Shown: one piece after another, positions 4,388 through 58,711 of the stretch
How the letters are laid out: each line of letters starts with the position of its first letter
Numbering within the stretch: position 1 is the stretch's first letter
Virus record (IMG/VR): IMGVR_UViG_2675903061_000001
Coordinates: 24,380-88,379 of that record
Direction: 5' to 3' (one strand)
Length of the DNA stretch: 64,000 bases
Origin: a virus
Lineage: Duplodnaviria; Caudoviricetes
Position numbers and translations under genes: made by a program
Notes under the pieces: generated by a model
The model's input: the letters and a program-made list of their open reading frames with translations, nothing else
Told to the model about the DNA's origin: nothing
Database searches by the model: none

Positions 4388-4690
4388 TCAGGACTCGGCG
4401 CCAGCGCCTTCCTCGTGGATCAGCTCGAGCAGCCGGTCGTAGAGCGACTTCGCGACCGCTCCGCGCTGCTCGTCGGTCAGGTCCCCAAGCGCCCGGGCGA
4501 TCGCCTCGGCCGCCTGCCGGTCCCGCTTCGCCTGCTCGTAGAAGGCATAGCTGACGAGGACGGCGGCTTCCTTGCCGCGGTTCATGAGGATCGTGGGTTC
4601 GCCGGCGAACCGGGCGCGCGCGATGACCTCTCCGAGGACGTTGCGGGCCTCGGCGATCTTCGCGCGGTGCTCGGTGCGGGGCGTGGTCAT
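4388..4690 (-). CDS. Phd/YefM-family antitoxin-like protein (orphan)
   Basis: IAEARNVLGEVIARARFAGEPTILMNRGKEAAVLVS matches the Phd DNA-binding pattern. Confidence 0.8.
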   Translation of the reverse strand: MTTPRTEHRAKIAEARNVLGEVIARARFAGEPTILMNRGKEAAVLVSYAFYEQAKRDRQAAEAIARALGDLTDEQRGAVAKSLYDRLLELIHEEGAGAES

Positions 4691-4753
4691 GGCTACAGCG
4701 TAGCGGATTCGCTACAGACCACAACATCGCCAATTCGCTTTCTTAGCTATGAT
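4691..4753. promoter_or_regulatory. Divergent promoters: leaderless minus-strand -10 for phd, plus-strand -10 for the replication operon, palindromic operator
   Basis: TACGCT (minus, 4697-4702) 6 nt before ATG; GTAGCG-GATT-CGCTAC at 4700-4715; TATGAT at 4748-4753. Confidence 0.55.
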
Positions 4754-4845
4754 GGGCATGTGAGGGTTCGCGAGGCGCCGCCTCCCTGACCTGCAATTCG
4801 ACTCGCCCGCAAACCCTCAGCCCCACCCCCGAGAGAAGGACGCAC

Positions 4846-5748
4846 GTGAGCCTCGACGCCATGCACTGGGTGTGGAACCACTCCCAGACGCGAGGGAACG
4901 CCCGCCTGGCCCTGCTCTTCGTAGCGGACCAGGTGCGTACCCCGGCGTGCGAGGTGCGCGTCAGCGTGGCCGACCTCATGTGCGCGCTGAACGCCTCCAG
5001 GAACACCGCGAGGGAGGCGATCCGGGCGGCCGAGGAGACCGGGGAACTGGAGACGATCGAGCCGGCATCGGGTCGCCGCGCGGCGCTGTACCGGCTCCCG
5101 AAGGCGGTCGGGCACGTCCAGCCGAGCTCTCGTAGAGGGTCAGAACTTGACCCTCTAGAAAACCGTAGAGGGTCAGAACTTGACCCCCTACGGCCCGGCC
5201 CCTCCCCCCGTAGAGGGTCAGAACTTGACCCCCTAGAAAACCGTAGAGGGTCAACTTTCGACCGTAGAGGGTCAGAACTTGACCCCCCTTACCCACACCC
5301 AACTACTAACCAGCAAGCAGGCACGGGCGCGGGTGAGGCCAGCAGCGACCAGACGGACGTCTTCACCGTCTGCGGTCCGCTCATCCAGGCGATGACCGAC
5401 GCCGGGATCACCGTCTCCTGGGACATGTCCACCGAGCAGTGGATGGAGACCGTCCGCGTCGTCCAGCGCGCCGGTGTCGACGCCATGGTCGAGTTCGCCC
5501 TCAAGACGATGCCGACCGCCAAGACGCCGGTCCGGTTCGCCAAGTTCTTCCTCGCCGCCGGATGGCGCGGCCTGCCCCCGGCCAGCGCCCGTCAGCCGTC
5601 GCAAGCCCGAATGCCCCGTTCGCTGCCGCCGCATTGCGGTGAGTGCGACCCGGACACCCGCCTCCGCTCCGGCGAGACACCCGACGGATTCCGCGTCGTC
5701 GCCCCCTGCCCCGACTGCCACCCGAACCGTGAAGGAGCCGCCGCGTGA
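4846..5748 (+). CDS. Phage replication initiator (N-terminal winged HTH, internal iterons)
   Basis: MSLDAMHWVW..RLALLFVAD N-terminus typical of phage initiators; directly upstream of dnaB; RRGSELDP repeats. Confidence 0.8.
   Translation: MSLDAMHWVWNHSQTRGNARLALLFVADQVRTPACEVRVSVADLMCALNASRNTAREAIRAAEETGELETIEPASGRRAALYRLPKAVGHVQPSSRRGSELDPLENRRGSELDPLRPGPSPRRGSELDPLENRRGSTFDRRGSELDPPYPHPTTNQQAGTGAGEASSDQTDVFTVCGPLIQAMTDAGITVSWDMSTEQWMETVRVVQRAGVDAMVEFALKTMPTAKTPVRFAKFFLAAGWRGLPPASARQPSQARMPRSLPPHCGECDPDTRLRSGETPDGFRVVAPCPDCHPNREGAAA
5131..5286 (+). repeat. Iteron array / probable replication origin
   Basis: CGTAGAGGGTCAGAACTTGACCC at 5131, 5164, 5209 and 5263, plus a half copy at 5242; each has a GGGTCA-N5-TGACCC palindrome. 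Confidence 0.85.
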
Positions 5749-24330: not shown

Positions 24331-24385
24331 ATCCCGCGCCGCCGCCCATCCCATGCCCAAACCCGTACAAACCGGAGGCCCGCCG

Positions 24386-36089: not shown

Positions 36090-36195
36090 CCGCGGCCGCA
36101 GCCACACCTACCTGTAGTCGGCCGGGCGCTGTCCCGGCCTCCGTCCCATGACCCCGCCACTGAGCGGGGTTTTCGCATGTTTGGAGGTTGGGGCT

Positions 36196-37170
36196 GTGGC
36201 CCTCACCAGTGACTCTGACCTGCTTCCCATCGAATGGGCGCAGGACGTCATCAAGGAGATGAGCAAGTCCTCGGCAGTGCTGGGCCTGTCGCGGCGCCGC
36301 ACGATGACCACGCGGCAGCAGCGGCTTCCCGCGACCGCAGTGCTGGCCGACGCCTACTGGGTCGGCTCCGGGGACAACGACTTCACCGACCTGAAGCAGC
36401 AGACCAACGCCGAGTGGAACGGCGTGAACCTGATCGTGGAGGAGCTCGCCTGCCTGGTCGGCATCCCCCACGCCTACGAGCAGGACAACTCCTTCCCCGT
36501 GTGGGAGGAGGTGCGTCCGCAGATCGTGGAGGCGATGGGCAAGCGTCTGGACGCGGCCGCCCTGTTCGGGGTGGGCAAGCCTTCCACTTGGCCGGCGGCG
36601 ATCCTGCCGTCGATCGTGGCGGCCGGGCAGACGGTGGAGCGCGGCACCGAGGACGACCTGGCGGCGGACATCGCCGAGTCGGCGCGGGTGCTGAAGCAGC
36701 AGGGGTTCCGCACCACCGGGTGGGCGGCCGAGCCCGGGTTCCACTGGGAACTGGTGGGGCTGCGGTCGCTGGACGGCGCGCCGATCTACCAGCCGAACCT
36801 GTCGGGGCCGATCAATCAGGGCCTGTACGGGCTGCCGCTGGTGGAGGTGGAGAACGGGGCGTGGCTCACCACGACTGACGCCTCGGTGATCCACGGGGAC
36901 TGGTCCAAGTCGATCGTCGGTATCCGGCAGGACATCACCTTCACTCGGCACGACTCCGGCGTGATCGGCGACTCCTCCGGCAACATCGTGTTCAACGCGA
37001 TGCAGCAGGACGCGACGATCTGGCGTGCGGTGTTCCGGGTGGCGTGGGCTCGCGCGAACCCGGCGACCCGGACCGGTGACCAGCCGGGCGAGTCCGGTGA
37101 CAACTCCCCGTCCTCGGAATCCTCGCCGGCGAAGTTCCCGTGGGCGGCCGTGGTGCCGGCCGGCTCGTGA
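36196..37170 (+). CDS. Major capsid protein (HK97 fold)
   Basis: Follows the scaffold; GGAGG-GTG start; GDWS..VGIRQDI and FNAMQQD motifs. Confidence 0.9.
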   Translation: MALTSDSDLLPIEWAQDVIKEMSKSSAVLGLSRRRTMTTRQQRLPATAVLADAYWVGSGDNDFTDLKQQTNAEWNGVNLIVEELACLVGIPHAYEQDNSFPVWEEVRPQIVEAMGKRLDAAALFGVGKPSTWPAAILPSIVAAGQTVERGTEDDLAADIAESARVLKQQGFRTTGWAAEPGFHWELVGLRSLDGAPIYQPNLSGPINQGLYGLPLVEVENGAWLTTTDASVIHGDWSKSIVGIRQDITFTRHDSGVIGDSSGNIVFNAMQQDATIWRAVFRVAWARANPATRTGDQPGESGDNSPSSESSPAKFPWAAVVPAGS

Positions 37171-37850
37171 CGACGCATCTGGTGGTGGGCGCAGGAGAGG
37201 TGGGCACTGCGGTGCACGCGGTGCTGTCCTGCGCCCACGACGCCCTCATCCGAGACATCGAGCCGGTGCCTGTGGGGGCGGAGGTGCTGCACGTGTGCTT
37301 CCCCTGGTCGGAGGATTTCGCTGCGCAGGTCAAGGCGTATGCCGACGAGCACGGTGCCGGCCTGGTGGTGGTGCATTCCACCGTGCCGCCCGGGACGTGC
37401 GATCCGCACGGGTGGGTGCATTCCCCGGTTCGGGGGCGGCATCCGCACCTGGCGCCGGCCCTGCGCGCGTTCATCAAGCACTTCGGCGGCCACCACGCCG
37501 CCGAGGCCGCGCAGGCCTGGGAGGACGCGGGCGTCCGCACCCGCGTGCACACGCTGGCCGCCGACACCGAGGCGGGGAAATTGTGGGAGCTGGTCCAGTT
37601 CGGTGTGCAGGTGCGGGTGGAGAAAGCCATCCATGCGTGGTGTGCCGAGAGAGGGCTGGACGCCGATGTGGTGTACCGGCAGATGGCCGAGACCTACAAC
37701 GACGGCTACGCCGACCTCGGCGAGCACCGGTTTCTGCGGCCGGTGCTGGCCCACATGCCCGGCGATATCGGGGGGCACTGCGTGCGGCCCATGGCCGCGC
37801 TGCTCGATCACCCCCTGGCCGAGATGGTGACCCGTGGCCTCGATTCCTGA
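37167..37850 (+). CDS. UDP-glucose/GDP-mannose dehydrogenase-like protein (no C-terminal domain)
   Basis: GAGEVG Rossmann motif, HSTVPPG, EAGKL, catalytic-type GGHC. Confidence 0.8.
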   Translation: MTTHLVVGAGEVGTAVHAVLSCAHDALIRDIEPVPVGAEVLHVCFPWSEDFAAQVKAYADEHGAGLVVVHSTVPPGTCDPHGWVHSPVRGRHPHLAPALRAFIKHFGGHHAAEAAQAWEDAGVRTRVHTLAADTEAGKLWELVQFGVQVRVEKAIHAWCAERGLDADVVYRQMAETYNDGYADLGEHRFLRPVLAHMPGDIGGHCVRPMAALLDHPLAEMVTRGLDS

Positions 37851-38502
37851 GGTGCTTCACCGTATCTGGCTGGATGACCCGATGCCGCCGGAGTTCGAGG
37901 AGTACGGGCGGCGCTGGGCCGAGCTGCACCCGGGGTGGGAGATCCGGGAGTGGCGCAGCTCGGCCGAGCTTCCGGTGCTGGCCACCCAGGACCTGTTCGA
38001 CGCCGCGCGCGAGGTGTGTCCGCGGGACTGGAAGCGGTTCCAGGCGGACCTGCTGCGCCTGGAGCTGCTGGACCAGTATGGCGGGGTGTATGTGGACACC
38101 GATGTGCAGCCGCTGCGGCCGCTCGGGCCGCTGCTGGCGCAGGTCGGAGACCAGGCGTTCGTGCCGTGGTCGCCGAACCGGGGCGCGGGCGGGCGCAGGC
38201 TGCTGACGCAGTGCGTGCTCGGTGCGCCGCCGGGGCACCGGTGGATCCGGGCGTGCATCGCCGGCATCCCCGACGCGGTCAGCCGGTACCGGGGGCGTCC
38301 GTTGGCGCAGATGGTCGGCCCGCACCACGTCACCCGCGTGTGGGAGCAGAACCCGCAGGGCGTGACGGTGCTGGACGAGGAGCTGTTCGGGCCGCAGAGC
38401 AACCGCGCGCGGGACCGCGGGCAGGCCCCCGACCTGTCGCGGTCCTACGCGTGGCACCGGTGGGCGAACACCCGGGACCGGCGGCGGGGAGGTGTGCGAT
38501 GA
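37834..38502 (+). CDS. Glycosyltransferase family 32 (DXD)
   Basis: IPEVLHRIWL, HPGWE, ADLLRLELL..YGGVYVDTD and VGP motifs. Confidence 0.9.
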   Translation: MASIPEVLHRIWLDDPMPPEFEEYGRRWAELHPGWEIREWRSSAELPVLATQDLFDAAREVCPRDWKRFQADLLRLELLDQYGGVYVDTDVQPLRPLGPLLAQVGDQAFVPWSPNRGAGGRRLLTQCVLGAPPGHRWIRACIAGIPDAVSRYRGRPLAQMVGPHHVTRVWEQNPQGVTVLDEELFGPQSNRARDRGQAPDLSRSYAWHRWANTRDRRRGGVR

Positions 38503-39449
38503 CGTCGTATCAGCCTGTGTGGCGCGGCGGGCAGGCCGTCGCCGAAGGGGAGCGGGAGTGCGCGGACCGGTGGGAGCCGATCCGCGAAGTCCTCGCCGCC
38601 GTGGAGCAGCCGTTCACGGTGCTGGACCTGGGCGCGGCGCAGGGCTACTTCTCGGCCCGGGCGGCGGAGGAGTTCGGCTGCCGCGTCTCCGCGATCGACT
38701 CCGACCGGGCGGTTGCGCAGGCGGCCAGTTCGCTGGTCACGCCGTATGTGCGGCGCGTCGACGCCTCCGGCCTGCGGCACATGGCCCGGCACGATGTGGT
38801 GCTGGCGCTGTCGGTGCTGCACCACTTCGGCGACTGGCGTGCGGTGCTGCGGCAGGTGCGTGCCTGCCGGCGCTGGGCGGTGGTGGAGGTGCCGCACCCG
38901 GGCGAGCGGTGGCTGCGCTCGGCCGCCGCCCGGCACCAGCTGGCCGCGATTCATGACGCGGTCGCCGCGGTGGCCGAGCGCAGGCTGGGCGAGTTCGAGC
39001 GCACCGGCCGGGACGGCTCGCGGCACATGCGGCCGATGTACCTGCTGCGCGGCACCGTCCGCACGGTGGAGGGCGAGGTGTTCGGCGGCTCGGGCACCTG
39101 CTCGCGCAAGCTGCGCCCGCACCTCCACGCCGCGGGCCTGGACCGGGAGCTGGGCTACCAGCCGTTCCCGGGCAGCCTGAACCTGCGCTGCAAGGAGCCG
39201 CCCGTCCTGGGGGCGCCGGCGGTGAACTGGCCCGGCCGCGTCGGCGGCAAGAGCCGGCCGTACTGGTTCTGGGAGGCGTGGGTCGGGAAGCTCGCGGTCC
39301 ACGCCATGGACCCGGCCGGCCGCGGACACGGCCCCGACTGCATTGAGGTCGTCGCCCCCGTCCGTCTGCGGGACCGGCTGTCCCTGGCCGACGGCGACAC
39401 CGTCCGCCTGGACGTCGAGACCACCGAGAAGGGAGCGGACCATGGTTGA
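38499..39449 (+). CDS. Class I SAM methyltransferase fused to a CTP-dependent riboflavin kinase-like (DUF120) domain
   Basis: VLDLGAAQGYFS and LALSVLHH; then GEVFGGSG, LGYQPFPGSLNL and IEVVAPVRLRDRLSLADGDTV. Confidence 0.78.
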   Translation: MTSYQPVWRGGQAVAEGERECADRWEPIREVLAAVEQPFTVLDLGAAQGYFSARAAEEFGCRVSAIDSDRAVAQAASSLVTPYVRRVDASGLRHMARHDVVLALSVLHHFGDWRAVLRQVRACRRWAVVEVPHPGERWLRSAAARHQLAAIHDAVAAVAERRLGEFERTGRDGSRHMRPMYLLRGTVRTVEGEVFGGSGTCSRKLRPHLHAAGLDRELGYQPFPGSLNLRCKEPPVLGAPAVNWPGRVGGKSRPYWFWEAWVGKLAVHAMDPAGRGHGPDCIEVVAPVRLRDRLSLADGDTVRLDVETTEKGADHG

Positions 39450-40164
39450 CCGCTGGTCCCTGTCCCCGGCCGAGCGGGCCGCGCGGCGGGAGCGGGTGCG
39501 CCGCCGCGCCGCCGCCCGCGACGCGCGGGTGCCGGAGGGCAAGACCTACACCCTACGCAAGCACCGCAAGTCCTTTCAGATGTGGGCGTGGCCGGGGAAG
39601 ATCGCGGCCTGCCTGGAAGCCGGGAAGCCGTATGAGCAGCCGCTCCTGGAGCACATCTACGCCGAGGAATTCCGCGGTACCGCGGTCGATGCCGGCGCCA
39701 ACCTCGGCAACCACAGCCTGTGGTTCGCCGTCATGTGCGGTTTGGACGTGGCGGCGTTCGAGCCGCTGTGGGCGCAGCAGCTGCGGCACAACGTGCAGCT
39801 CAACAACCTCGGCGAGCAGATTCGGGTGGAGGCGGTCGCGCTCGGCGATGCGGACGGGGTGGCCGAGCACCAGGGCAAGGGGCGCCTGGAAACCGGCCGC
39901 GGCCAGCTGCCGGTGCGGCGCCTGGACGACTACGGCCTGACCGGCGTCTCCCTGATCAAGGCGGATGTGGAGGGCATGGAGCCGGCGGTGCTGCGCGGCG
40001 GGGAGGCCACTATCCGCCGCGACCGGCCGGTCATCTTCGCCGAGGCCTGGAACGGCACAGCCCACGAAGCTCTTGGGCAAGTGCTGGAGCCGTGGGGCTA
40101 TTCGATGACGCGGCGCTTCAAGTCCAGAGGCGTGGCGACCGCGGTGGAGAGGTGGGACGGGTGA
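39442..40164 (+). CDS. FkbM-family methyltransferase
   Basis: VDAGANLGNHS, AFEP, LIKADVEGME and RPVIFAE motifs. Confidence 0.9.
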   Translation: MVDRWSLSPAERAARRERVRRRAAARDARVPEGKTYTLRKHRKSFQMWAWPGKIAACLEAGKPYEQPLLEHIYAEEFRGTAVDAGANLGNHSLWFAVMCGLDVAAFEPLWAQQLRHNVQLNNLGEQIRVEAVALGDADGVAEHQGKGRLETGRGQLPVRRLDDYGLTGVSLIKADVEGMEPAVLRGGEATIRRDRPVIFAEAWNGTAHEALGQVLEPWGYSMTRRFKSRGVATAVERWDG

Positions 40165-40961
40165 GCGTGTCCCTGTCGGTGGCGGTGATGGCCCACCCCA
40201 AGCGCCGGCACTTCGTCGCCGAGCTCACCGCGGCGCTGGACGTGGAGGCGCCGGTGGTGTGGGACGAGCGCAACGACCGGTGGGACACCGGCCGCCGCTC
40301 CCTCCTCGCCCACGACCCGCAGGCCAGTCACCACCTGGTGGTGCAGGACGATGCGGTCGTCTGCCGCGACCTCGCCGCCGCCGCCGCTCGTGCCGCGGAG
40401 GCGGCCGGGGAGCGGCCGGTGGCCCTGTACACGGGGCGGGTGCGGCCCTACCGGGCGCGGGTGGCGCAGGCCATCGAGGGCGCCCGGGCGGCCGGTGCGA
40501 CGTGGCTGGAGATGGAAGGCCCCTGGTGGGGCGTGGCGCTGGTCATCCCCACAGCCCACATCCCCGACCTGGTCGCATGGGGCGACGGCCGCCCCGACGT
40601 GCCGAACTACGACAAGCGCATCGCCCGCTGGTACGGCCACCAGGGCATTGCCTGCTGGTACAGCATTCCGTCCCTGGTGGACCACCGCAGCGTGGCCGAG
40701 AACCCCTCCCTGGTGCCCGGGCGCACCGGGGACCGGCACGCCCACTGCTTCATCGGGCACGGCTCCTCGGGCCTGGACGTCGAGTGGTCCACCTGGGCCT
40801 TCCGGGCCGCTCAGGAGGAGCGTGACCTGCGGCGGCAGGTGCGGGAAGCACGCCGGGACCAGAAGATCCAGGCGCGGCGGCTGCGGCTTGAGGCCCGCGC
40901 GGCGCGCGCGGCCCGGCCGAGGGTGGTGAGCGCGGATGCCGGCGCTGGCAACACAGGCTGA
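40161..40961 (+). CDS. Putative GT-A glycosyltransferase
   Basis: VMAHPKR, HLVVQDDA and PSLVDH motifs seen in actinophage GTs; cassette context. Confidence 0.65.
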   Translation: MSVSLSVAVMAHPKRRHFVAELTAALDVEAPVVWDERNDRWDTGRRSLLAHDPQASHHLVVQDDAVVCRDLAAAAARAAEAAGERPVALYTGRVRPYRARVAQAIEGARAAGATWLEMEGPWWGVALVIPTAHIPDLVAWGDGRPDVPNYDKRIARWYGHQGIACWYSIPSLVDHRSVAENPSLVPGRTGDRHAHCFIGHGSSGLDVEWSTWAFRAAQEERDLRRQVREARRDQKIQARRLRLEARAARAARPRVVSADAGAGNTG

Positions 40962-41577
40962 CCTGGAGGCCCGGCTGGGCCGGCCGCTGACGGCGGAGGA
41001 GCAGGCGCGGGCGGGCGCGCTGCTGGCGGGGGCATCGGCCCGGGTCCGCGCCTATACGCGGCAGGAGTTCGACCTCGTCCATGGCGACGTGGTGGTGCTG
41101 CGGCCGGTCGGCACGGTGGTGCGGCTGCCGCAGCGGCCCGTCCTCGCGGTGTCGTCCGTGGTCGCCCTCGGCGGGGCGGAGACGATCCCGGACATCACAC
41201 TCCCGGGCGGGGCGTGGACGTGGGACGGCGCGGACAAGGTCGACATCTGGCCGCCCGATCAGGGGTGGCTGCTGAGCCTGCCCGAGTCGTGGTCCTCCGG
41301 GTGGGGCGGTGTGGACTCCTACCGCGTCACCTACGACCACGGCTACGCCACGATACCGGAGCAGGTGGTCGAGGCGGTGTGCGCGATGGTGCTGCGCAGT
41401 CTGCTGTCGCCGTCGCTGGCGCCGGGCATGGTGTCCGAGCGGATCGGCAACTACTCCTACCAGATGCAGCAGGGCGGCGGCGCGGCCGGGGCGACGGTGT
41501 CCATGACGGAGGACGACCGGGATCTGCTGCGGGACTTCCGGGTGCGCGCCACGACGATCCAGACCAGGGCGCGGTGA
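40936..41577 (+). CDS. Head-to-tail adaptor
   Basis: LATQADLEARLGRPL..RVTYDHGY..SERIGNYSY. Confidence 0.82.
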   Translation: MPALATQADLEARLGRPLTAEEQARAGALLAGASARVRAYTRQEFDLVHGDVVVLRPVGTVVRLPQRPVLAVSSVVALGGAETIPDITLPGGAWTWDGADKVDIWPPDQGWLLSLPESWSSGWGGVDSYRVTYDHGYATIPEQVVEAVCAMVLRSLLSPSLAPGMVSERIGNYSYQMQQGGGAAGATVSMTEDDRDLLRDFRVRATTIQTRAR

Positions 41578-46840: not shown

Positions 46841-49800
46841 GTGCCTGACATTCGTGTGGAGATGGCGTTCGGCGCCGACCCGGGCGCCGACCCGGCGTCC
46901 TGGACGTGGACCGATGTGACCTCCACCCCGCGCGGGCATCTGCTCGCGCAGCAGGTCACGATCTCTCTCGGGCGCCCCGATCGGGGCAGCGAGACACAGC
47001 CTGCGCAGGCCGCGGTGATGCTGGACAACCCGGAGGGCTGGCTGACCCCCGGCAATCCTGTCTCGCCGTGGTGGCCGGATGTGGTGCTGGGTGTGCCGAC
47101 CCGGGTGTGGGTGCGCGCCGGGGACACGCATTTGCTGGCGCCCGATACGGCAGGGTCTCGCGCGCGCGTGGCGTCGTCTGCCGCGCTCAATGTCGCCGGT
47201 GACCTGGACGTGCGTGTCGAGATGGCGCTCGACCGTCTCCCCGCGCAGGACGCCCAGTTCGCCAATGTGGCCAACGAACTGATGGCCCGGTACAACACTG
47301 CGGCCAACGCGCGGATGTGGCGGCTGCTGCTGTCCGGCTTCGGCCGGCCCACGCTCACGTGGTCCACCACTGGGGCAGACTTCACCGAGATCATCGGGCC
47401 CGAGGCGGTGCCGTATGTCTCAGGGCAGCGGTTCGCGCTGCGCGCCACCCTGGATGTGGACGACGGCGCCGGAGGCCATGCGGTCGCCTTCTACGTCTCC
47501 GGGGCGCTCAGCGGCCCGTGGGTGCCCCTCGGGCGCCCGGTCACCGGGTCAGGTACGACCTCCATCAACACCTCCGGGGCGGCCGACCTGGAGCTGGCGG
47601 ACCTGTCCACCCAGGGTCTCGCGCGCGGAGCGGGCCGCTGGTACGGAGCCGAGCTGCGCAGCGGCATCGATGGCACGGTGCTGGCGGCGGCGGACTTCAC
47701 CACCCACGATCCAGGCACCACGTCCTTCACCGACCCGCAGGGCAACCTGTGGGAGATCCAGGGTGACGCCGGCTTCACCGACTACCAGCGCCGTCTCACC
47801 GGAGAGGTGGCGGAGATCGCGCCGTCGTGGCCGTATGGCGACCTGTCCGACCCCGACGACCCGGAGGGCACCCCCGGCGAGGCACGGGTCGCGGTCACGG
47901 TAGCCGGGGTCCTGCGCCGCCTCAGCTCCGGCCAGCCGCCGCTCCAGAGCACGCTGCGCCGCCGCATCCCCTCGGCCGACCCGGCGCCCCTGGCGTACTG
48001 GCCCATGGAGGACGGCCGCGACACGGGGGGCGAGGCTGCGTCCGCACTGCCCGACGGTGCTCCGCTGTCGCTGACGGGCGTGTCCTGGGCGGCCGATGAC
48101 ACCCTCGGCGGGTCCGCCGCGCTGCCCACCATGGGCAGCACGACCCGGCTGTACGGCACCGTCCAGGGCGCAGCGGCCGGGGGCTGGCAAGCCGAAATGG
48201 TGTACCGGCTGGAGGCGCTGCCGGCCACCGAACAGACCATGCTGCGGCTGTACCTGGAGTCCGCGTCCGGCGGCGTGCAGGCGGTGCGGGTGCGCTGCTC
48301 CACTGCCGGCATCAGGGTGCAGGCCCTCGGCGAAGACGATGCGGTCGTGGCCCAGTTTCTGTTCACCGACGCCGACGCGCTGGCGGATTTCGCCGGCACC
48401 TGGAACCGGCTGGCGCTCTTCTCCTACCAGGCAGGCACCGACTGCTATGTGCGGGCAGCCTGGCGGGACATCTCCGCCGGCTCCTACTGGTACGCCGGCA
48501 CCATCTGGGCGGGCACCACGGTCGGGAGCGTCCGCGCGGTGCGCGGCGCATGGGGCAGCGATTTCCAGGGCGCCGCCATCGGGCACCTGGCTGTATGGGC
48601 CGTCGGCGGCACCAGCTCGACTGCCCCGGGCGTCACCATCTACAACGGCGCGGACGACGGCTACGCGGGCGAGACCGCGCTGGCCCGGATGCGGCGCCTG
48701 GCACAGGAAGAGGGCTTCCCTCTCAGCGTGCCGGGCGACTCGTCGCTGTCGGCCCGGATGGGCCCGCAGCGCGTGGCCACCCTGCTGGACCTGCTCCAGG
48801 AGTGCGCCGACGCCGACGGCGGCATCCTGACCGAGCGCCGCACCGTAGCGGGCTTGCAGTACCTGCCGCGCCACTTGCTGTACAACCGGCCTGCGGCGAC
48901 CCTGGACGCGCGGGCCACGCTCGACGGGGCACCCGCGAGCGAGATCGCGCAGCCGTTCGAGCCGGTACTGGACGACCAGCGGCGCCGCAACAGCGTCACC
49001 GTGACCCGCACCGACGGGGCGAGCGCCCTGGCCCAGGACCCGGCCGACATCGCCCAGTCCGGCCTCCGGTCCGGAGGCCGTGAGCTCAACGTGGCCTCCG
49101 ACAATGTCCTGCCCGACATAGCCGCCTGGGAGGTGCACCTGGGGACCTGGCCCGGGATGCGCTACCCCGACATCACCACCGACCTGGTCGTGGCGCCTCA
49201 GCGCGCCGAGGACTGGCTCAGCGCCGCTCCCGGTACCCGCGTGCAGGTCACGGGCCTGCCGCCCCAGCACCCCCCGGGGGGCGCCGATCTGCTGATGGAG
49301 TACATCAGCGAGACGATCACCCCCACCCGGTGGTCCGCCACCGCGGCCTGCTCCCCGGCCGGCCCCTGGACGGTCGGCACGCTGGCGGGCGATGATCCGG
49401 CGCCTTCCGACCCGCCGCACCACCTGGATGCCGAGGATTCGGTGCTGGCGGTGCCCGCGACGGCCACGGACGGCACGCTGTGGGTGGACCCGCAGACCGA
49501 TCCGGACTGGGTGGTCACCGGCAGCTCGGAGTCCGACCCGGCGGATGTGCCGGTGGACATCTCGCTCGGCGGCGAGGTGGTGACGGTCACGAACATCGGG
49601 GAGCGGCGGGACACGGTGCTGCCCGCCGCGGCCGGGGGCGGGGACGCAGACGCGGCTGCAGCCACCGGCCATGTGGCGCCGGACGTGACCGCGGCGGCGG
49701 CCGGGCTGCTGGTCTGCTGCTGGGCCAGCTACTTCGAGCCGGGCACCTACACCATCCCCGTCAGCATGACCGAGGTCTCGCAGGGAGCCGGGTCCTTTTC

Positions 49801-50350
49801 GGCGGCGGCCTTGGCCACCGAGGCACTGGCCGGGGCCGGCGCGACCGGCACCCGCACCGCCGTGCTCGACATCGCCGACGCGTGGTCCGCGGTCTCCCTG
49901 GCGCTGCCGGGCGCCGTCACGGTGGAGGAGGCGCTGACCGGCTACGCCGCGGGCGACGACGTGCAGCTGACCACCGCCGCAGGCACCGCGGCCGGCTGGT
50001 GGCTCCTGGCGGTGCAGGCCGTGGACGAGGACGCGGCCGGGGAGATGGCCCCGCCGTCCGGCACCGGCTGGACCCTGGCCGCCGAGTCGGGCGGCGCGAC
50101 CGGCGCCACCTCCCGTATCCGGGCGTGGATGCGGCGGGTGGAGACCGCGGGCGCCCAGGAGGTCACCGTCACCGGCGGCTCCGGCATCACCGACTCCCGG
50201 GTGTGGCTGCTGACCCTGTCCGGCACCGACGGCGCACTGGTCGGCACCGGCCAGCCGTTCGCCGCGTCCCGCTCTGTCAACGGCATCAGCAAGAGCCACG
50301 CGGCCGGGACAGATGTGCGGCTCGCCCGCCCGATGATCGTGGCCCTGTAG
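46841..50350 (+). CDS. Large minor tail/baseplate protein with LamG-like domains
   Basis: 1169 aa after the tape measure; AYWPMEDG motif; RSVNGISKSHAAG C-terminus. Confidence 0.75.
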   Translation: MPDIRVEMAFGADPGADPASWTWTDVTSTPRGHLLAQQVTISLGRPDRGSETQPAQAAVMLDNPEGWLTPGNPVSPWWPDVVLGVPTRVWVRAGDTHLLAPDTAGSRARVASSAALNVAGDLDVRVEMALDRLPAQDAQFANVANELMARYNTAANARMWRLLLSGFGRPTLTWSTTGADFTEIIGPEAVPYVSGQRFALRATLDVDDGAGGHAVAFYVSGALSGPWVPLGRPVTGSGTTSINTSGAADLELADLSTQGLARGAGRWYGAELRSGIDGTVLAAADFTTHDPGTTSFTDPQGNLWEIQGDAGFTDYQRRLTGEVAEIAPSWPYGDLSDPDDPEGTPGEARVAVTVAGVLRRLSSGQPPLQSTLRRRIPSADPAPLAYWPMEDGRDTGGEAASALPDGAPLSLTGVSWAADDTLGGSAALPTMGSTTRLYGTVQGAAAGGWQAEMVYRLEALPATEQTMLRLYLESASGGVQAVRVRCSTAGIRVQALGEDDAVVAQFLFTDADALADFAGTWNRLALFSYQAGTDCYVRAAWRDISAGSYWYAGTIWAGTTVGSVRAVRGAWGSDFQGAAIGHLAVWAVGGTSSTAPGVTIYNGADDGYAGETALARMRRLAQEEGFPLSVPGDSSLSARMGPQRVATLLDLLQECADADGGILTERRTVAGLQYLPRHLLYNRPAATLDARATLDGAPASEIAQPFEPVLDDQRRRNSVTVTRTDGASALAQDPADIAQSGLRSGGRELNVASDNVLPDIAAWEVHLGTWPGMRYPDITTDLVVAPQRAEDWLSAAPGTRVQVTGLPPQHPPGGADLLMEYISETITPTRWSATAACSPAGPWTVGTLAGDDPAPSDPPHHLDAEDSVLAVPATATDGTLWVDPQTDPDWVVTGSSESDPADVPVDISLGGEVVTVTNIGERRDTVLPAAAGGGDADAAAATGHVAPDVTAAAAGLLVCCWASYFEPGTYTIPVSMTEVSQGAGSFSAAALATEALAGAGATGTRTAVLDIADAWSAVSLALPGAVTVEEALTGYAAGDDVQLTTAAGTAAGWWLLAVQAVDEDAAGEMAPPSGTGWTLAAESGGATGATSRIRAWMRRVETAGAQEVTVTGGSGITDSRVWLLTLSGTDGALVGTGQPFAASRSVNGISKSHAAGTDVRLARPMIVAL

Positions 50351-52998: not shown

Positions 52999-53015
52999 TT
53001 CTGTCGTGCCCGAGG

Positions 53016-53321
53016 TCAGTTCTTGCGGCGGGGGCAGGCCAGGCAGATGCGGGCGCTGACGGTGGGGCGCCTGACCTCTCCTCCCAGGGGCGTGCCGTAG
53101 CCTCGGCGGCATGTCTCGACGGCGGCTGCGTCGAGGTAAGGGTCGTGGTCGCACTCGCCCTCCCCTCGCGGGGTGCGCCGCGCGACGGCGAGGGCCTTGT
53201 CGAGCATCTCGTCGTCGCCGTCGGTTGGGTCGAGTTCGATCTCGTAGGTCTCCAGGATGTGGCCGCGGGCTACGACGCACGCGTCAGCCACGAGCCCGGC
53301 CATGATGTTTCTGCTGGTCAT
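53016..53321 (-). CDS. hypothetical protein
   Basis: ATGA overlap with the upstream gene; frame of ORF 53016..53960. Confidence 0.6.
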   Translation of the reverse strand: MTSRNIMAGLVADACVVARGHILETYEIELDPTDGDDEMLDKALAVARRTPRGEGECDHDPYLDAAAVETCRRGYGTPLGGEVRRPTVSARICLACPRRKN

Positions 53322-53896
53322 GATGCCACCTTCTCCGTGAGGTTTCCGCGCTGCACGTAGTACGCGCGCATGAAGGCGATCGCTTCGGCGTCGTTCATGC
53401 GCTCTTCGACGCCGAGGCCGCTGCCTTCCTGCGCCCCCCGGGCGTAGATCTCTTCCAGGGTCTGTTCGGCGAGTTCGGCGGCGGCGGGGTGGGTCTCGCG
53501 CAGGGTCTTGAGGTCCCGCGCGATGGCCGGGGTGGCCTGGGCCACGACGCCGGCGGGGAGGTGGCTCTGCGTCCACCACGGCTCGATGGTCTTCCACGCC
53601 TGCCCGCGTCCGCGCAGTTGGTCGTCGATGAAGGACAGGACGCCGGACCAGCAGCCGGTCACGTCGGCCGGGTGGAGGTTCTCCAGTGGGTTGTCGACCG
53701 CGCGGGCGAGGATGCGGGAGACGGCCTGCTGGGTGATGCCGGCGGCTTGGGCGAGGCGGACCTGGGTCCAGAGTTCGGGGTCCTCGCGGCGCAGTTGAAG
53801 GATCAGGTCGGCGCGGGCGGCCTCGGCGGCGCGGCCTTCGGCGACCTTCCGGTTGAGTTCGGCGAAGCGGTCGGCCTGTGTGGACGGGGTGGGCAT
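53318..53896 (-). CDS. HTH domain protein
   Basis: WTQVRLAQAAGITQQAVSRIL; AAGGAG RBS. Confidence 0.7.
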   Translation of the reverse strand: MPTPSTQADRFAELNRKVAEGRAAEAARADLILQLRREDPELWTQVRLAQAAGITQQAVSRILARAVDNPLENLHPADVTGCWSGVLSFIDDQLRGRGQAWKTIEPWWTQSHLPAGVVAQATPAIARDLKTLRETHPAAAELAEQTLEEIYARGAQEGSGLGVEERMNDAEAIAFMRAYYVQRGNLTEKVAS

Positions 53897-53917
53897 GGGT
53901 GGTGGGCTCCTTGGTGG

Positions 53918-54499
53918 TCAGCAGCAGGTGCAGACGCCGCCGTAGCGGCCGGAGGGGCACTCGCAGCGGATGCTGCGGCGGCCCGGGGTGGCGAGGGGCT
54001 TGAGGGTGTCAATCCAGTGGCTGGCGCCGGCGGAGGTGAGGAGGTGGGCGTCGTCGGCGGGGTAGTTGGGGGGGAGGCGGTGGCTGTCGGCGGCGCGGCG
54101 GGCGAGGCTGCGCAGGTAGTCGAGCTGGCGGGCGGTGGCGGGGCGGCCGTGGCCGTAGCGCTGGGCGAGGTGCTGGCGGGTGGTGTTCTCGCGGGCCATG
54201 CGCTGGATGGTGTCGGCCTTGTGGGAGCAGGTGAAGCAGGGGCGGGTGGTGGCGCCGGGCAGTGCGTGCCAGCGCAGCCAGGTGTCGTGGCCGCAGGTGT
54301 GGGTGATGCGCCAGGTGGGGGTGTGGGTGCGGCGGGCGAAGTGGCGGCGCTGTTCGATCAGGACGCGGGTGCGGAGGCTGGTGGCGTCGATGTCCCACCG
54401 CCCGGCGGTCTTGGTGGCGGCGACGACGCCCGTCCGGCACCAGTTGCGGATGGTCGCGACGGTGCGGCCGGTGGTCTGTGCAGCGGTGGCGGTGTCCAT
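53918..54499 (-). CDS. Xis-like HTH fused to an unknown domain
   Basis: MDTATAAQTTGRTVATIRNWCRTG..GRWDID; ATARQLDYL motif. Confidence 0.7.
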   Translation of the reverse strand: MDTATAAQTTGRTVATIRNWCRTGVVAATKTAGRWDIDATSLRTRVLIEQRRHFARRTHTPTWRITHTCGHDTWLRWHALPGATTRPCFTCSHKADTIQRMARENTTRQHLAQRYGHGRPATARQLDYLRSLARRAADSHRLPPNYPADDAHLLTSAGASHWIDTLKPLATPGRRSIRCECPSGRYGGVCTCC

Positions 54500-54510
54500 C
54501 GGAGTCCCCC

Positions 54511-54561
54511 TACAACTTCGGCGTACAACTCGATAGTACAACCGCGTTGTGGGGGGTGCAA
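54511..54561 (-). promoter_or_regulatory. Sigma70-type promoter with operator repeats
   Basis: TTGCAC-N17-TACTAT; TACAAC at 54511, 54524 and 54537 (13-bp period). Confidence 0.7.
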
Positions 54562-54598
54562 GTCGCATGCCGAGCTCCTTTCAGAAAGCGAGTCAGCC

Positions 54599-54865
54599 TC
54601 AGAACGGCGCTGGCCCGGACCCCTGCACGTCCAGCCGGCCAGCGCCTTCGTGGTGCTGCCGGGGGACGACGCGCCCTGCCCGGCCGCTGGGCAGCTCCAG
54701 GCGCAGCTCTGTCGCGCCGTAGGCGTCGTACAGGTCGGCGTCCGGGCCGAGCAGGTGGCCGAGCCAGCAGGGGAACGGGCCGCCCGGCTCCACCCTGAGC
54801 ACGGCCGTGACCTCGGTGGGGATGCTGTCGGCGACCAGGGTTGCCGCCCCCTCGTAGCTGTCCAC
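54599..54865 (-). CDS. small beta-rich protein (probably leaderless)
   Basis: CACACT seven nt before GTG; YEGAATL..GSGPAPF. Confidence 0.55.
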   Translation of the reverse strand: MDSYEGAATLVADSIPTEVTAVLRVEPGGPFPCWLGHLLGPDADLYDAYGATELRLELPSGRAGRVVPRQHHEGAGRLDVQGSGPAPF

Positions 54866-56142: not shown

Positions 56143-56212
56143 TTATGGCTGCAATGGGCAACGGCCCTGACGCGCCGCCCCGCTGTCACACCCCCGTGCG
56201 ACACTGCCGTCC

Positions 56213-56449
56213 GTGGTGACTGTGCCTGAGCTCGTGGCCGTTGAGGGCCGCCGCCTCGGCCTGGACGAGCGCATGGTGGCCGAGGTGTACGACGCCCTCA
56301 CCTGTGAGGAGGGCCCCGGCCGGCCGTGGCCGGACGACGACGTCGTCCAGGTGATGGAGTCCCTCATCGTGCCCGACTGGGCCTCCCCGGACACCATCGC
56401 CGCCATTGTGCGCGGAGTGGTCGCAGCAGACCGGAAGGAACTCGGGTAG
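56213..56449 (+). CDS. small acidic hypothetical protein (probably leaderless)
   Basis: GACACT seven nt before GTG. Confidence 0.5.
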   Translation: MVTVPELVAVEGRRLGLDERMVAEVYDALTCEEGPGRPWPDDDVVQVMESLIVPDWASPDTIAAIVRGVVAADRKELG

Positions 56450-56459
56450 ACGGCGGCGC

Positions 56460-57911
56460 CTACCGGGTCGGCAGGCCGAGCCTCAGCACCCACATGGTGA
56501 CGGTCTCGCGCGTCACCCCCAGCTCCTCGGCGATCTCAGCGATACCCCGGCCATCTGCCCACAGTGCCCGCAGGCGGGCTTCGGACTGCTCCAGCTTGGG
56601 CATCCTCCGTGCCCGGCGCGGCGGGAGCCCCAGCTCCGCGACCCGACGGCGCAGGGTGGGCAATGCGACGCCGAGTTCGGCGGCGATCGATCTCACGGTC
56701 CGCTCCTGGTCCGCCCACATCTCCGCGACCTTGTCGAGCTGGTCCGCGCGCCGGGCCGCCTGCCGTGGCGGGAGCCCTTCCTCCTGCGCCCACTTGTGCA
56801 CGGTGACGCGGCTGATCCCCAGCTCCTCGGCGATGCTGGTGGGGCTGCGGTCCGGGTCGGCCCACAGCTCCCCCAAGCGGCGCCGGGCGTCCGCGCTGTC
56901 CCGTCCTGACCGGCGTGGGGGCAGTTCGGCTTTCGCTGCCCAGCGATGCACGGTAACCGGGGTGACGCCGAGTTCAGCCGCGATGTCCCGCACTCTCGCC
57001 CCGTCGGCCCACAGCTCCCGCAGCCTCGGCATGGCCTGGTCCAGCGTCGTGGCCGGGCGACTCCGAGGCCCGCCCAGCTCCCCTGCCTGCTGGGCCTCGC
57101 CCTCGGTCACGGGCTGCTGTCGAGGAGCGCGACCCGGCCGGGTTGCCCCGATCCTCTCGATCCAGTTCAGGACCGACTGGTCGCTGACCCCCAGCTCCCG
57201 GGCCATCTCCGTGACGCTCCTGCCCTCCTCCAGCAGTTCCTCCAGCCGCTCTCTGCTCTCGGCGAACCGTGCCCCTGGAGGCTTGGCCCGGGGCGGGAGC
57301 CCCAGCTGGCGAGCCCACTGCCACACCGTGTTATCGGACGCCCCGAGGGTCTTGCCGATCTCGAGTACCGTGATGCTGCGGTCGGCCCACAGCTCCCGCA
57401 ACTGCGCCACCCGGTCCGCCGTCAGCAGGATCTTCCAGCTCGGCGAGGTCTCCCGGGCTGCCCCCGTCAGCAGGGCGACGACCGCGGCTTCCGCCTGGGC
57501 GACCCCCGGCCGCCCTCGCAGATCCTCCAGCTCACTATCTGACAGGCCGCACACATACGCCGCCAGGCCCGCATCACCCGCGGTCCGCGTCAAGGCGGCC
57601 AGGTAGTCCCCGACCCGCGCCGCCTGCTGTACTTCCTCGGGGTATCCGTCCAAGGCGGCGCGCAGTTCACCGTCCCGGCTGGCCTGGGCACCTAGGCGAG
57701 CGACGGGCAGGCCGACGCCGTCGGCCGCCGCTTCCGGCCGCGATCCTGCCCGCAGCGCGTCCAGCACCGTGCGCCGCTGCTCCAGGGTCATGCCGCGGTA
57801 GCGGCCGGTCTCGGCGTTGTGGGCGGTGCGGCAGCGCGGGCACCGGCCGCCCCTTCGCCACCCGGAGGGGGTGCCGCAGAAACGACCGGCCTCGGCGCAG
57901 TGCTTGATCAC
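56460..57911 (-). CDS. Multi-HTH repeat protein (six tandem C-terminal HTH units)
   Basis: Repeated LRELWAD..IAxELGV...WxxxxGLPPR units. Confidence 0.8.
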   Translation of the reverse strand: MIKHCAEAGRFCGTPSGWRRGGRCPRCRTAHNAETGRYRGMTLEQRRTVLDALRAGSRPEAAADGVGLPVARLGAQASRDGELRAALDGYPEEVQQAARVGDYLAALTRTAGDAGLAAYVCGLSDSELEDLRGRPGVAQAEAAVVALLTGAARETSPSWKILLTADRVAQLRELWADRSITVLEIGKTLGASDNTVWQWARQLGLPPRAKPPGARFAESRERLEELLEEGRSVTEMARELGVSDQSVLNWIERIGATRPGRAPRQQPVTEGEAQQAGELGGPRSRPATTLDQAMPRLRELWADGARVRDIAAELGVTPVTVHRWAAKAELPPRRSGRDSADARRRLGELWADPDRSPTSIAEELGISRVTVHKWAQEEGLPPRQAARRADQLDKVAEMWADQERTVRSIAAELGVALPTLRRRVAELGLPPRRARRMPKLEQSEARLRALWADGRGIAEIAEELGVTRETVTMWVLRLGLPTR

Positions 57912-58348
57912 CGAGTCCCGCTTCCCGCGTCGCTGGCGTAGGTGATGGCCAGGCCGGGCACCTCCTGGGCGACCCGGGCGACGACAGCGCGGTGCCAGGA
58001 CGCGGGGAACGGGATCTCGGGGTGCGCCTTGTGGTATTCGGTGTCGTCGCGGTAGGTGATCACCCCGGGTTCGGGCATGTCCATCAGCGCGGTGATGAGG
58101 CCGCTGACGAACTCCCCGGTGCGGCGCTCCAGGTCCTCGATCTCCAGGCGGACGCCGTCGGGGATGACGTAGGTGCCGGCTTCCCAGTGGCGTACCGTGC
58201 GGCCGGTCACGCGCAGGTGGGCGGCGAGCCAGTCCACGGACAGGCCCAGGAATTCGCGCACGACGCGCAGTTCGGCGGGGGTCATCCGCTCGTCCTCGGG
58301 CATCCCGGGCGGGTCACTGTGGGCGCGTTCGGTGTTCTTGGCGTTCAC
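57908..58348 (-). CDS. DUF1870 / Aca2-like XRE regulator
   Basis: MTPAELRVVREFLGLS..TVRHWEAG..IP..YRDD..WHRAVVARV. Confidence 0.75.
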   Translation of the reverse strand: MNAKNTERAHSDPPGMPEDERMTPAELRVVREFLGLSVDWLAAHLRVTGRTVRHWEAGTYVIPDGVRLEIEDLERRTGEFVSGLITALMDMPEPGVITYRDDTEYHKAHPEIPFPASWHRAVVARVAQEVPGLAITYASDAGSGTR

Positions 58349-58411
58349 GTCGGTCTCTCCAGGGGTGGGCCCCGGCCGACTCGCGGCCGGGGCTGTGGGG
58401 GTGGGTCTTGG

Positions 58412-58711
58412 TCAGCGGGCTGCGGGCTCGACGGTGACGGTGCAGCCGGTGGGCACTGCCTCCCACCGTCCGGTCAGGTGCCAGCCGGCCGCCTCCAGGG
58501 CGTCCTCGGCCTGCTTAATGGCGTCGGTGCCGTCGGCGTCGTGCCGGGCGTCCAGCTCGGCGCGGAAGAGGGGGTCACCGAAGGAGGAGCGGGCACCCCG
58601 GTCGTCGGGGCTGTCGCCGCGGATCTCGTCCTCCAGGACGACCACGTCGCAGTGGTCACCGTCCAGGACGGAGCGGTCGGTGCTGAGCCAGGCGGTGAAG
58701 TAGCGGGACAT
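58412..58711 (-). CDS. small acidic hypothetical protein
   Basis: 99 aa, Asp/Glu-rich; RBS present. Confidence 0.7.
   Translation of the reverse strand: MSRYFTAWLSTDRSVLDGDHCDVVVLEDEIRGDSPDDRGARSSFGDPLFRAELDARHDADGTDAIKQAEDALEAAGWHLTGRWEAVPTGCTVTVEPAAR

Follow-up and report, generated by a model that had tools for sequence, protein, structure and literature searches.

A WbdD-type methyltransferase fused to a riboflavin-kinase-fold domain in a phage head operon: a candidate methyl-phosphate glycan-capping enzyme

Among the described enzymes closest to the protein considered here are WbdD of Escherichia coli O9a, in which a methyltransferase and a kinase are joined in one chain for methyl-phosphate capping of a glycan, and the archaeal riboflavin kinases RibK and RbkR. 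We analyzed a stretch of 64,000 nucleotides (the window) from a virus of the Caudoviricetes (Duplodnaviria), corresponding to positions 24,380 to 88,379 of IMG/VR record IMGVR_UViG_2675903061_000001, in which one gene, P0001, encodes a WbdD-type methyltransferase fused to a domain of the RibK fold. On balance we favor the reading that this coupled kinase and phosphate-methyltransferase caps a sugar of a phage glycan with methyl phosphate, using a kinase that is not homologous to that of WbdD. To our knowledge, the fold of the second domain (Pfam PF01982, CTP-dep_RFKase, formerly DUF120) has so far been met only as archaeal riboflavin kinase dependent on cytidine triphosphate (CTP).

Each of the WbdD substitutions Y16F, H132A, H133A and R203A abolishes methylation of the 3-phosphate and leaves kinase activity intact, as described in PMC3482155, whose authors state that R203, H132 and H133 have no equivalents in the O8 enzyme, nor among the other sugar methyltransferases known, and say that these residues let WbdD use a phosphate as the nucleophile. 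The same source describes direct methylation of hydroxyls by WbdD of E. coli O8, the presence of His-His or Tyr-Tyr at the place of WbdD His132/His133 in NodS and RebM, and the action of WbdD on a lipid-linked polymer. For the methyl-phosphate terminus of Klebsiella O7, a methyltransferase-kinase pair unlike that of WbdD in sequence and predicted structure is reported (PMC11231755). According to PMC5397151, the RbkR of Thermoplasma acidophilum (taRbkR) binds CTP through G102, G104, G106, T131, L132, N133, L202 and R203, and flavin mononucleotide (FMN) through Y109, Y115, F165, P185, Y190 and E195, the last being the likely catalytic base. In RibK, the LR motif contacts the cytosine base (bioRxiv 10.1101/2021.04.15.440061).

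Domain architecture and the methyltransferase half

P0001 is one uninterrupted reading frame on the + strand, running from the ATG at 38499 to the stop codon at 39447-39449 and divided into two domains:

38499..39449, + strand: whole gene P0001, 316 amino acids (aa); WbdD-type methyltransferase and RibK-fold putative kinase domain, fused (open reading frame and translation, Pfam, AlphaFold2)
38499..39053, + strand: N-domain, aa 1-185; class I methyltransferase dependent on S-adenosylmethionine (SAM), WbdD type (Pfam, VIA-align, profile)
39054..39446, + strand: C-domain, aa 186-316; PF01982 cradle-loop barrel, the fold of archaeal CTP-dependent riboflavin kinase (Pfam, VIA-align, profile)

All motifs quoted in a preliminary description of this DNA, YQ..RECADR, VLDLGAAQGYFS, LSVLHH, GEVFGGSG, LGYQPFPGSLNL and IEVVAPVRLRDRLSLADGD, are found in the translation. 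Pfam matched Methyltransf_23/12/25/11 over aa 30-135 (E 6e-9 to 6e-6, each above its cut-off) and PF01982 over aa 210-306 (45.5 bits, the cut-off being 25; E 8.9e-12). When the single sequence was searched against PDB sequences, the riboflavin kinase Mj0056 was matched at E 9e-6 and WbdD was the best methyltransferase match at E 0.007. With a profile of 31 family members, the values were 1.9e-15 for Mj0056 and, over profile positions 4-186, 1.3e-10 for WbdD, the next methyltransferase following at 3.7e-5. The AlphaFold2 (AF2) model of P0001, built from 31 family members, has a predicted local distance difference test score (pLDDT) of 93.1 and a predicted template-modelling score (pTM) of 0.91, the high pTM suggesting that the methyltransferase and the RibK-fold domain pack in a fixed arrangement. 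Structural ranking was taken from VIA-align, with which the best 1000 PDB chains from Foldseek were re-aligned; Foldseek by itself placed RbkR first, with a poor whole-chain root-mean-square deviation (rmsd). The N-domain aligned with WbdD (4azs) at Z 19.2 and rmsd 2.3 Å over 177 residues (24% identity), ahead of the next methyltransferase family, TehB (Z 15.9), and the C-domain aligned with Mj0056 (2vbv) at Z 16.1 and rmsd 2.1 Å over 127 residues, and with RbkR (5trd) at Z 14.7.

The fusion of a methyltransferase with an archaeal-type RibK fold, as first described, is thus borne out by Pfam, the PDB profile search and the AF2/VIA-align comparison, the RibK fold being present. The resemblance to WbdD, for which an alignment had been wanted, is supported by its position as top match in both sequence and structure, with its four essential residues aligned. 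The idea of a convergent WbdD analogue holds for the kinase half, which is not homologous to that of WbdD, and fails for the methyltransferase half, which is homologous by VIA-align and profile, ruling out a wholly convergent analogue. Behind the methyltransferase, where WbdD has its kinase, Pfam gave no kinase match of the protein-kinase type, aa 186-316 being PF01982. The AF2 model contains no C-terminal coiled coil, the protein ending at aa 316 with its last strand at 301-307 and residues 312-316 disordered, and no membrane anchor is apparent in it. An earlier suggestion that the enzyme may size the glycan is not supported, sizing by a ruler being rejected for lack of this coiled coil in the model.

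By hidden Markov model (HMM) profile alignment, in which WbdD residue numbers equal the PDB chain index minus 13, WbdD Y16, H132, H133 and R203 correspond to P0001 Y4, H108, H109 and R178, and the WbdD pocket residues R31/C33/R36 to R19/C21/R24. The codons of the four essential positions are:

38508..38510, + strand: Tyr4 codon, aligned with WbdD Tyr16 (profile alignment, conservation)
38820..38825, + strand: His108-His109 codons (LSVLHH), aligned with WbdD His132/His133 (profile alignment, conservation)
39030..39032, + strand: Arg178 codon (RPMYL), aligned with WbdD Arg203 (profile alignment, conservation)

In the 31-member alignment A1, H108, H109, R178, R19 and R24 are invariant, as are D43, G45 and G49 of the Gly-rich SAM motif, and Y4 and C21 are conserved in at least 90%; R178 is invariant in alignment A3 as well. 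Among 75 two-domain proteins, H108 is present in 75/75 and H109 in 72/75 (the remaining 3 have Asn), R178 is Arg in all 69 aligned (6 gaps), and Y4 is Tyr in all 52 aligned, with 23 gaps where the local alignment begins later.

These columns bear on an unlikely alternative that deserves weighing, in which both domains are active but independent: the methyltransferase would O-methylate a sugar hydroxyl, as O8 WbdD does directly (PMC3482155), and the C-domain would place a free phosphate on another position or another sugar. A second methyltransferase, of the FkbM type, is already present in the gene cassette around P0001, an extra mini-kinase accompanies the fusion in one related locus (L022, below), and His-His is also reported for methyltransferases that do not act on phosphate (PMC3482155), all of which would fit independent domains. 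Against this, R203, which PMC3482155 describes as lacking a match both in the O8 enzyme and among the other sugar methyltransferases known, has an invariant counterpart in R178, and the same methyltransferase clade is repeatedly fused to or located beside some kinase, as expected for a phosphate substrate.

The kinase half and the proposed reaction

The elements of the RibK phosphoryl-transfer core can be located in the C-domain:

39087..39095, + strand: Gly197-Ser-Gly199, Gly-rich polyphosphate loop (taRbkR Gly102/Gly104), the third Gly replaced by Cys201 (alignments)
39174..39182, + strand: Ser226-Leu227-Asn228, GTLN phosphate-binding motif, here GSLN (alignments)
39345..39347, + strand: Glu283 codon, aligned with taRbkR Glu195, the proposed catalytic base (alignments; invariant in A1 and A2)
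39366..39371, + strand: Leu290-Arg291, LR motif (alignments)

Among the 16 most diverse C-domains, the invariant columns are G197, G199, G219, G225, L227, N228, P272, E283 and R291, all of which except G219 are CTP-site, FMN-site or catalytic-base positions of taRbkR; G225, L227 and N228 are invariant in A1 as well as in the 16-sequence C-domain alignment. A C-domain profile of 16 sequences, very diverged copies included, was searched against 1.84 billion representatives and gave 2335 matches at E <= 0.001, 923 of them at E <= 1e-10. For comparison, 196 PF01982 domains were aligned, comprising 76 fused to a methyltransferase, 72 from proteins of up to 160 aa, 37 from proteins of 190-245 aa (an RbkR-like length) and 11 others. 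G197, G225, N228 and E283 are present in 76/76 of the fused domains. Within the taRbkR flavin-contact set only P185 and E195 are kept: the Y108/Y109 columns hold Arg in 52/76 and Lys in 30/76 of the fused domains compared to Tyr in 22/37 and 25/37 of the 190-245 aa group; the F165 column holds G/T/R/K compared to Phe or Tyr in 29/37; and the Y115 column holds H26/F20/Y11 of 76 compared to Tyr in 34/37. Conservation specific to the fused group appears at R253 (51/76), Y255 (67/76), W258 (73/76), H268 (68/76) and R275 (60/76). Our reading of these alignments is that the machinery for phosphoryl transfer from a nucleoside triphosphate (NTP) has been kept and the acceptor pocket rebuilt, and the basic and aromatic side chains of the pocket would suit a sugar or an anionic acceptor.

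The NCBIfam equivalogs for RibK were not reached (ribK_Meth, 33.2 bits versus 168; PRK14165, 29.8 versus 279). In a FastTree phylogeny of the 196 domains, 70/76 fused domains fall in one 76-tip clade (support 0.873) together with two fragments and four standalone proteins, each of about 129 aa, the other six fused domains lying outside. The RibK/DUF120 signatures noticed earlier in the C-domain are therefore genuine with respect to fold and phosphoryl-transfer core, which are intact, and are accompanied by an altered flavin pocket and by failure at the equivalog cut-offs. A true riboflavin kinase, that is, an auxiliary metabolic gene boosting FMN during infection with the methyltransferase fused incidentally, would agree with a PF01982 score above gathering and with the naming of some members as 'CTP-dependent riboflavin kinase' by the Joint Genome Institute (JGI). 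We consider this barely credible and rejected it on the equivalog scores, far under both RibK/RbkR cut-offs, on the replacement of the flavin aromatics by Arg, Lys or small residues, and on the glycan-synthesis context, in that the loci seen always have glycosyltransferases and never riboflavin genes; the separation of 70/76 fused domains from most other PF01982 also speaks against it. The database label 'CTP-dependent riboflavin kinase' is probably wrong for these viral proteins.

Loss of the third Gly of the polyphosphate loop, together with the remodelled acceptor-side residues, could also indicate that the C-domain is non-catalytic, binding a nucleotide or a sugar in order to position or regulate the methyltransferase. 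This is highly improbable, as the most constrained columns, also in the diverged copies L025 and L026, are almost all RibK phosphoryl-transfer, FMN-site and catalytic-base residues, and retention of Glu283 and Asn228 in 76/76 is not what one would expect of a module that only binds.

For the favored methyl-phosphate capping reaction we infer a kinase activity, its nucleotide and acceptor, the methyl-phosphate product, the order of the two steps, and virion proteins as the glycan carriers. The RibK-fold domain would use an NTP, by homology probably CTP, to phosphorylate not riboflavin but a sugar hydroxyl on the glycan; the acceptor would most likely be the sugar added by the neighboring DXD glycosyltransferase. 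The N-terminal methyltransferase would then move a methyl group from SAM onto the sugar phosphate, and the methyl-phosphate product should block further extension of the glycan. The chemistry would be that of O9a WbdD, with another kinase at the same junction and no ruler.

Partner kinases, distribution and head-module context

The same methyltransferase is found with other kinases. In the mycobacteriophage LittleE (cluster J-type), the gene order is capsid, glycosyltransferase gp15, kinase gp16, methyltransferase-GT2 gp17, glycosyltransferase gp18, further genes, glycosyltransferase gp21 and connector, and gp16 shows an APH/protein-kinase catalytic loop. In the mycobacteriophage DeadP, gp101, 51% identical to LittleE gp16, is followed by the methyltransferase gp102, 36% identical to the P0001 N-domain, and the glycosyltransferase gp103. 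The methyltransferases of both phages belong to the same clade as P0001 (36-40% identity), carry the Y/RxCxxR/LSVLHH/RP signature (LittleE with Ala at the Cys position) and adjoin glycosyltransferases, that of LittleE lying in the stretch from the capsid gene to the connector gene; the difference lies in the kinase, which is a separate 167-aa gene with the APH/protein-kinase catalytic loop, PF01982 being absent. The kinase-methyltransferase-glycosyltransferase block of DeadP occupies the place of glycosyltransferases 108-110 in Che8, a phage of the same genus. Comparison of the two loci (DeadP 53003-54727, L041; Che8 56171-58673, L042) shows that their right-end glycosylation blocks differ, that of Che8 having three glycosyltransferases and no kinase or methyltransferase. 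DeadP and Che8 are a natural pair for what the kinase-methyltransferase adds to the glycan, and Che8 capsids are glycosylated as reported in citing papers.

A second viral family, of the L035 type (alignment A4, about 45 clusters), resembles a 'mini-WbdD'. Its methyltransferase aligns with WbdD at Z 18.7 and rmsd 2.3 Å over 181 residues, and, as in P0001, the WbdD-type methyltransferase is followed at the same junction by a second domain of about 130 aa, here with invariant D275, N280 and D292. This second domain appears to differ from the RibK fold in carrying the catalytic-loop motif of the WbdD kinase: in the alignment with the family profile, HDDLRPWN..AID falls opposite HDDVRPWN..LID in the kinase loop of WbdD (second stretch, independent E-value 0.095), and a single-sequence phmmer search with the C-domain matched only WbdD at E 0.02-0.03, other matches lying at E of about 1. 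The L035 gene is located between genes for a GDP-mannose 4,6-dehydratase and a GT8 glycosyltransferase. Across lineages, then, a kinase, though not always of the same type, goes with the WbdD-type methyltransferase; this is the strongest, if indirect, argument that the RibK-fold domain of P0001 supplies the phosphate.

Several observations weigh against coupled methyl-phosphate capping. Locus L022 has both the RibK-like fusion and a mini-kinase like LittleE gp16 (L022:8184-8651), the only such case within the flanks of 23 fusion loci, so that the RibK-like domain need not feed the methyltransferase. Standalone methyltransferases bearing the same Y/RxCxxR/LSVLHH/RP signature, each about 180 aa long, occur at L027:6004-6546, L032:5995-6543 and L034:931-1494; together with copies in Halobacillus, they imply that the signature also occurs outside glycan loci. 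Methyltransferases that do not act on phosphate can have the His-His pair too, and because NodS and RebM have His-His or Tyr-Tyr at the same place, the weight in the methyltransferase half falls mainly on R178 and Y4. The column of G106, the third loop Gly, holds C/N/H/A/S in the fused group, with no Gly among the five commonest residues, compared to Gly in 32/37 of the 190-245 aa group, and the groups in this comparison were set by protein length and methyltransferase presence rather than by taxonomy ('archaeal-type' being a label of length). The residue mapping to both WbdD and RibK rests on HMM alignments.

The L022 mini-kinase is 32% identical to LittleE gp16 and scores 22.7 bits for APH against a cut-off of 23.2; the cassette of this locus also has the DXD glycosyltransferase and the FkbM methyltransferase. 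A simple story of kinase-for-kinase replacement is weakened by L022, which has both types. The standalone copies of L027, L032 and L034 lie on low-GC viral contigs between PAPS-reductase+DUF3440 and ParB_N genes, with no glycosyltransferase, a setting that looks like DNA modification rather than glycan synthesis. In Halobacillus (L036:5248-6564 and L037:5248-6564), a 438-aa protein ends in the WbdD-type methyltransferase, which is preceded by a 260-aa domain with no Pfam match; this latter domain has a 54%-identical paralogue just upstream (4521-5216) and, by eye, a GGQHR motif reminiscent of ParB/Srx.

The fusion itself recurs among viral sequences, in about 50 protein clusters. A word-indexed protein search returned 53 proteins at E <= 0.001. 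PF01982 is present in 51 of them (counting the query), each aligned over 92% or more of the query's length, with identities as low as 39%; some sources name members 'CTP-dependent riboflavin kinase', 'riboflavin kinase', 'SAM-dependent methyltransferase' or 'hypothetical protein'. Among 34 viral metagenome loci from IMG/VR, 25 have the fusion: 23 found by tblastn (L002-L024), L025, with a GC content of 33% and both halves recognized by Pfam, and L026. By tblastn, all 23 of these loci have the DXD glycosyltransferase in the cassette, 17 have the phrog_854-type glycosyltransferase and 9 have FkbM, and a portal gene lies upstream in 11/23, 2.5-4 kb from the cassette, these counts not being independent, as several loci are incomplete and some are near-duplicates. 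L026:5818-8124 (P0056) encodes a 768-aa viral protein with a methyltransferase (His-Asn for His-His), two tandem PF01982 domains and GT2; other larger fusions include FkbM in P0029 (515 aa) and P0062 (518 aa) and a GT2-like domain in P0072 (529 aa). The ESM Atlas holds a 51-member cluster of the methyltransferase-PF01982 architecture, 91% of it labelled viral. In 50,697 isolated phage genomes no C-domain match was found with the whole protein (E <= 1e-5) or with the C-domain alone (E <= 0.1), and the whole-protein search gave N-domain-only matches in 45 Mycobacterium phage records. In BFVD, the two best matches are to the methyltransferase only (185 columns), and none of the 50 matches listed spans both domains. 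A scan of genome contigs with one peptide pattern, weak as evidence of absence, found only the two Halobacillus loci, with the N-domain only. We found no description of the architecture in the open-access literature searched, which omits most subscription journals, consistent with its having been put forward as undescribed.

P0001 lies in a late siphovirus module ordered as large terminase, portal, protease, scaffold and major capsid protein. The capsid gene is followed by genes for a 236-aa protein, a DXD glycosyltransferase, P0001, an FkbM methyltransferase and a phrog_854 glycosyltransferase, and then by those for the head-tail adaptor, the major tail protein and the tape measure:

36148..37170, + strand: major capsid protein, first gene of the cassette (Pfam Phage_capsid over aa 25-305 of 340; translation)
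37834..38502, + strand: upstream DXD glycosyltransferase, PF04488 (Pfam E 1.2e-11; synteny by tblastn)
38486..38502, + strand: Shine-Dalgarno sequence GGGGAGG (38486-38492), and ATGA in which the start codon overlaps the stop of the upstream glycosyltransferase gene (sequence read directly)
39442..40164, + strand: downstream FkbM-family methyltransferase (Pfam and NCBIfam)
40161..40961, + strand: glycosyltransferase, phrog_854 ('glucosyltransferase'; PHROG E 3.2e-33)
40936..41577, + strand: head-tail adaptor, last gene of the cassette (phrog_442, E 4.4e-31)

The GGGGAGG site lies six bases 5' of the P0001 ATG, and the P0001 stop overlaps the ATG (39442) of the FkbM gene; since its start and stop overlap both neighboring genes, P0001 belongs to a translationally coupled run. 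The glycan setting proposed earlier is upheld by this position within a glycosyltransferase cassette inside the head module. It also bears on the target. The same chemistry might act outside the virion, on a host envelope glycopolymer or lipid-linked glycan (for lysogenic conversion or superinfection exclusion) or on a soluble precursor. P0001 is a prophage gene, WbdD itself modifies a lipid-linked polymer (PMC3482155), and the virion as target is our inference; we nevertheless regard a non-virion target as improbable, given the translational coupling within a late head operon running from capsid to adaptor, the recurrent spacing from the portal gene in 11/23 related loci, an AF2 model with neither membrane anchor nor coiled coil, and the position of the block in the cheoctovirus DeadP at the place of the glycosyltransferases of Che8, for which citing papers report capsid glycosylation.

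The C-terminal 35 aa of the capsid protein, past the Pfam domain, are Ser/Pro-rich (…GESGDNSPSSESSP…; window 37063-37170) and are a plausible candidate O-glycan acceptor. The start of the 236-aa gene (37140-37850, + strand) overlaps the end of the capsid gene. Its product matches nucleotide-sugar dehydrogenases only weakly, in their NAD-binding N-domain (PF03721, E 0.046; TIGR03026, E 0.0059; phrog_9148, E 0.0075), and has about half their usual length; among the related loci a homologue, 57% identical, is present only in L017. On the 3' side of the tape measure, a gene at 46841-50350 (+ strand) encodes a 1169-aa protein matching phrog_5313 (E 6.8e-198), in which aa 700-849 match a 'phosphodiesterase' PHROG (E 2.5e-27). 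The prophage contig (C12) is part of a 6.48-Mb, 43-contig genome in which P0001 is the single PF01982 copy. PF01982 occurs in 2/301 sampled genomes of the class, this genome counted, and in 0/14 of the same genus; in the other genome (G167; L039, L040) it is present twice, in open frames 129 and 222 aa long, lengths resembling RibK and RbkR. The single copy and the rarity of the family in the class and genus speak against a part in the host's riboflavin metabolism.

It is possible, and we put it forward tentatively, that phages recruited the archaeal riboflavin-kinase barrel as a CTP-dependent glycan kinase. If true, PF01982 would gain its first substrate other than a flavin, and the fold a second function; methyl-phosphate capping would have a third independent kinase fold, after those of WbdD and Klebsiella O7, and the phosphate-methyltransferase would keep its partner activity while the partner fold swaps. 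Virions of a widespread phage group, with locus GC contents from 33% to 72%, would bear methyl-phosphate-capped O-glycans, and the predicted cap adds 94 Da (phosphate plus methyl). We found no report of methyl-phosphate-capped glycans on any virus in the literature searched. Citing papers state that mycobacteriophage virion glycans shield virions from antibodies; a charged or capped glycan terminus could alter this shielding, a point of relevance when phages are selected for therapy. Enzymatic glycan modification could also profit from a kinase/methyltransferase that is small, soluble and free of a ruler.

Comparison with known systems

P0001 is most closely comparable to WbdD of E. coli O9a and K. 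pneumoniae O3 (4azs, 4azw, 4uw0). The N-terminal methyltransferases are homologous, with conserved counterparts of Y16/H132/H133/R203 and R31/C33/R36, and in both proteins the second domain begins immediately after the last strand of the methyltransferase, the WbdD kinase from residue 211 and the P0001 domain from about residue 186, after the RPMYL strand. In contrast, the WbdD kinase is of the eukaryotic type and spans about 250 aa, whereas its place in P0001 is taken by a cradle-loop barrel of PF01982, about 130 aa long. P0001 also lacks the C-terminal coiled coil, and with it the trimer ruler and the WbdA-recruiting region, and is encoded in a phage head operon rather than in an ABC-transporter O-antigen locus.

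K. pneumoniae O7 ORF6 provides a precedent for methyl-phosphate capping by a pair that is not WbdD-like (PMC11231755). As described there, its kinase uses ATP, has a catalytic Asp and is weakly similar to AmiN (Z 7.4), a description that sets it apart from the P0001 domain, and, unlike P0001, it is part of a large coiled-coil protein with GT2 modules (PMC11231755).

With RibK (Mj0056, 2vbv) and RbkR (T. acidophilum, 5trd/3cta), the C-domain of P0001 shares the PF01982 fold, the Gly-rich loop, the G[ST]LN and LR motifs and the catalytic Glu. The P0001 family differs from them in the absence of the flavin aromatics and of the third loop Gly, in the newly conserved residues R203, R253, Y255, W258, H268 and R275, and in being viral, fused to a methyltransferase and under the equivalog cut-offs.

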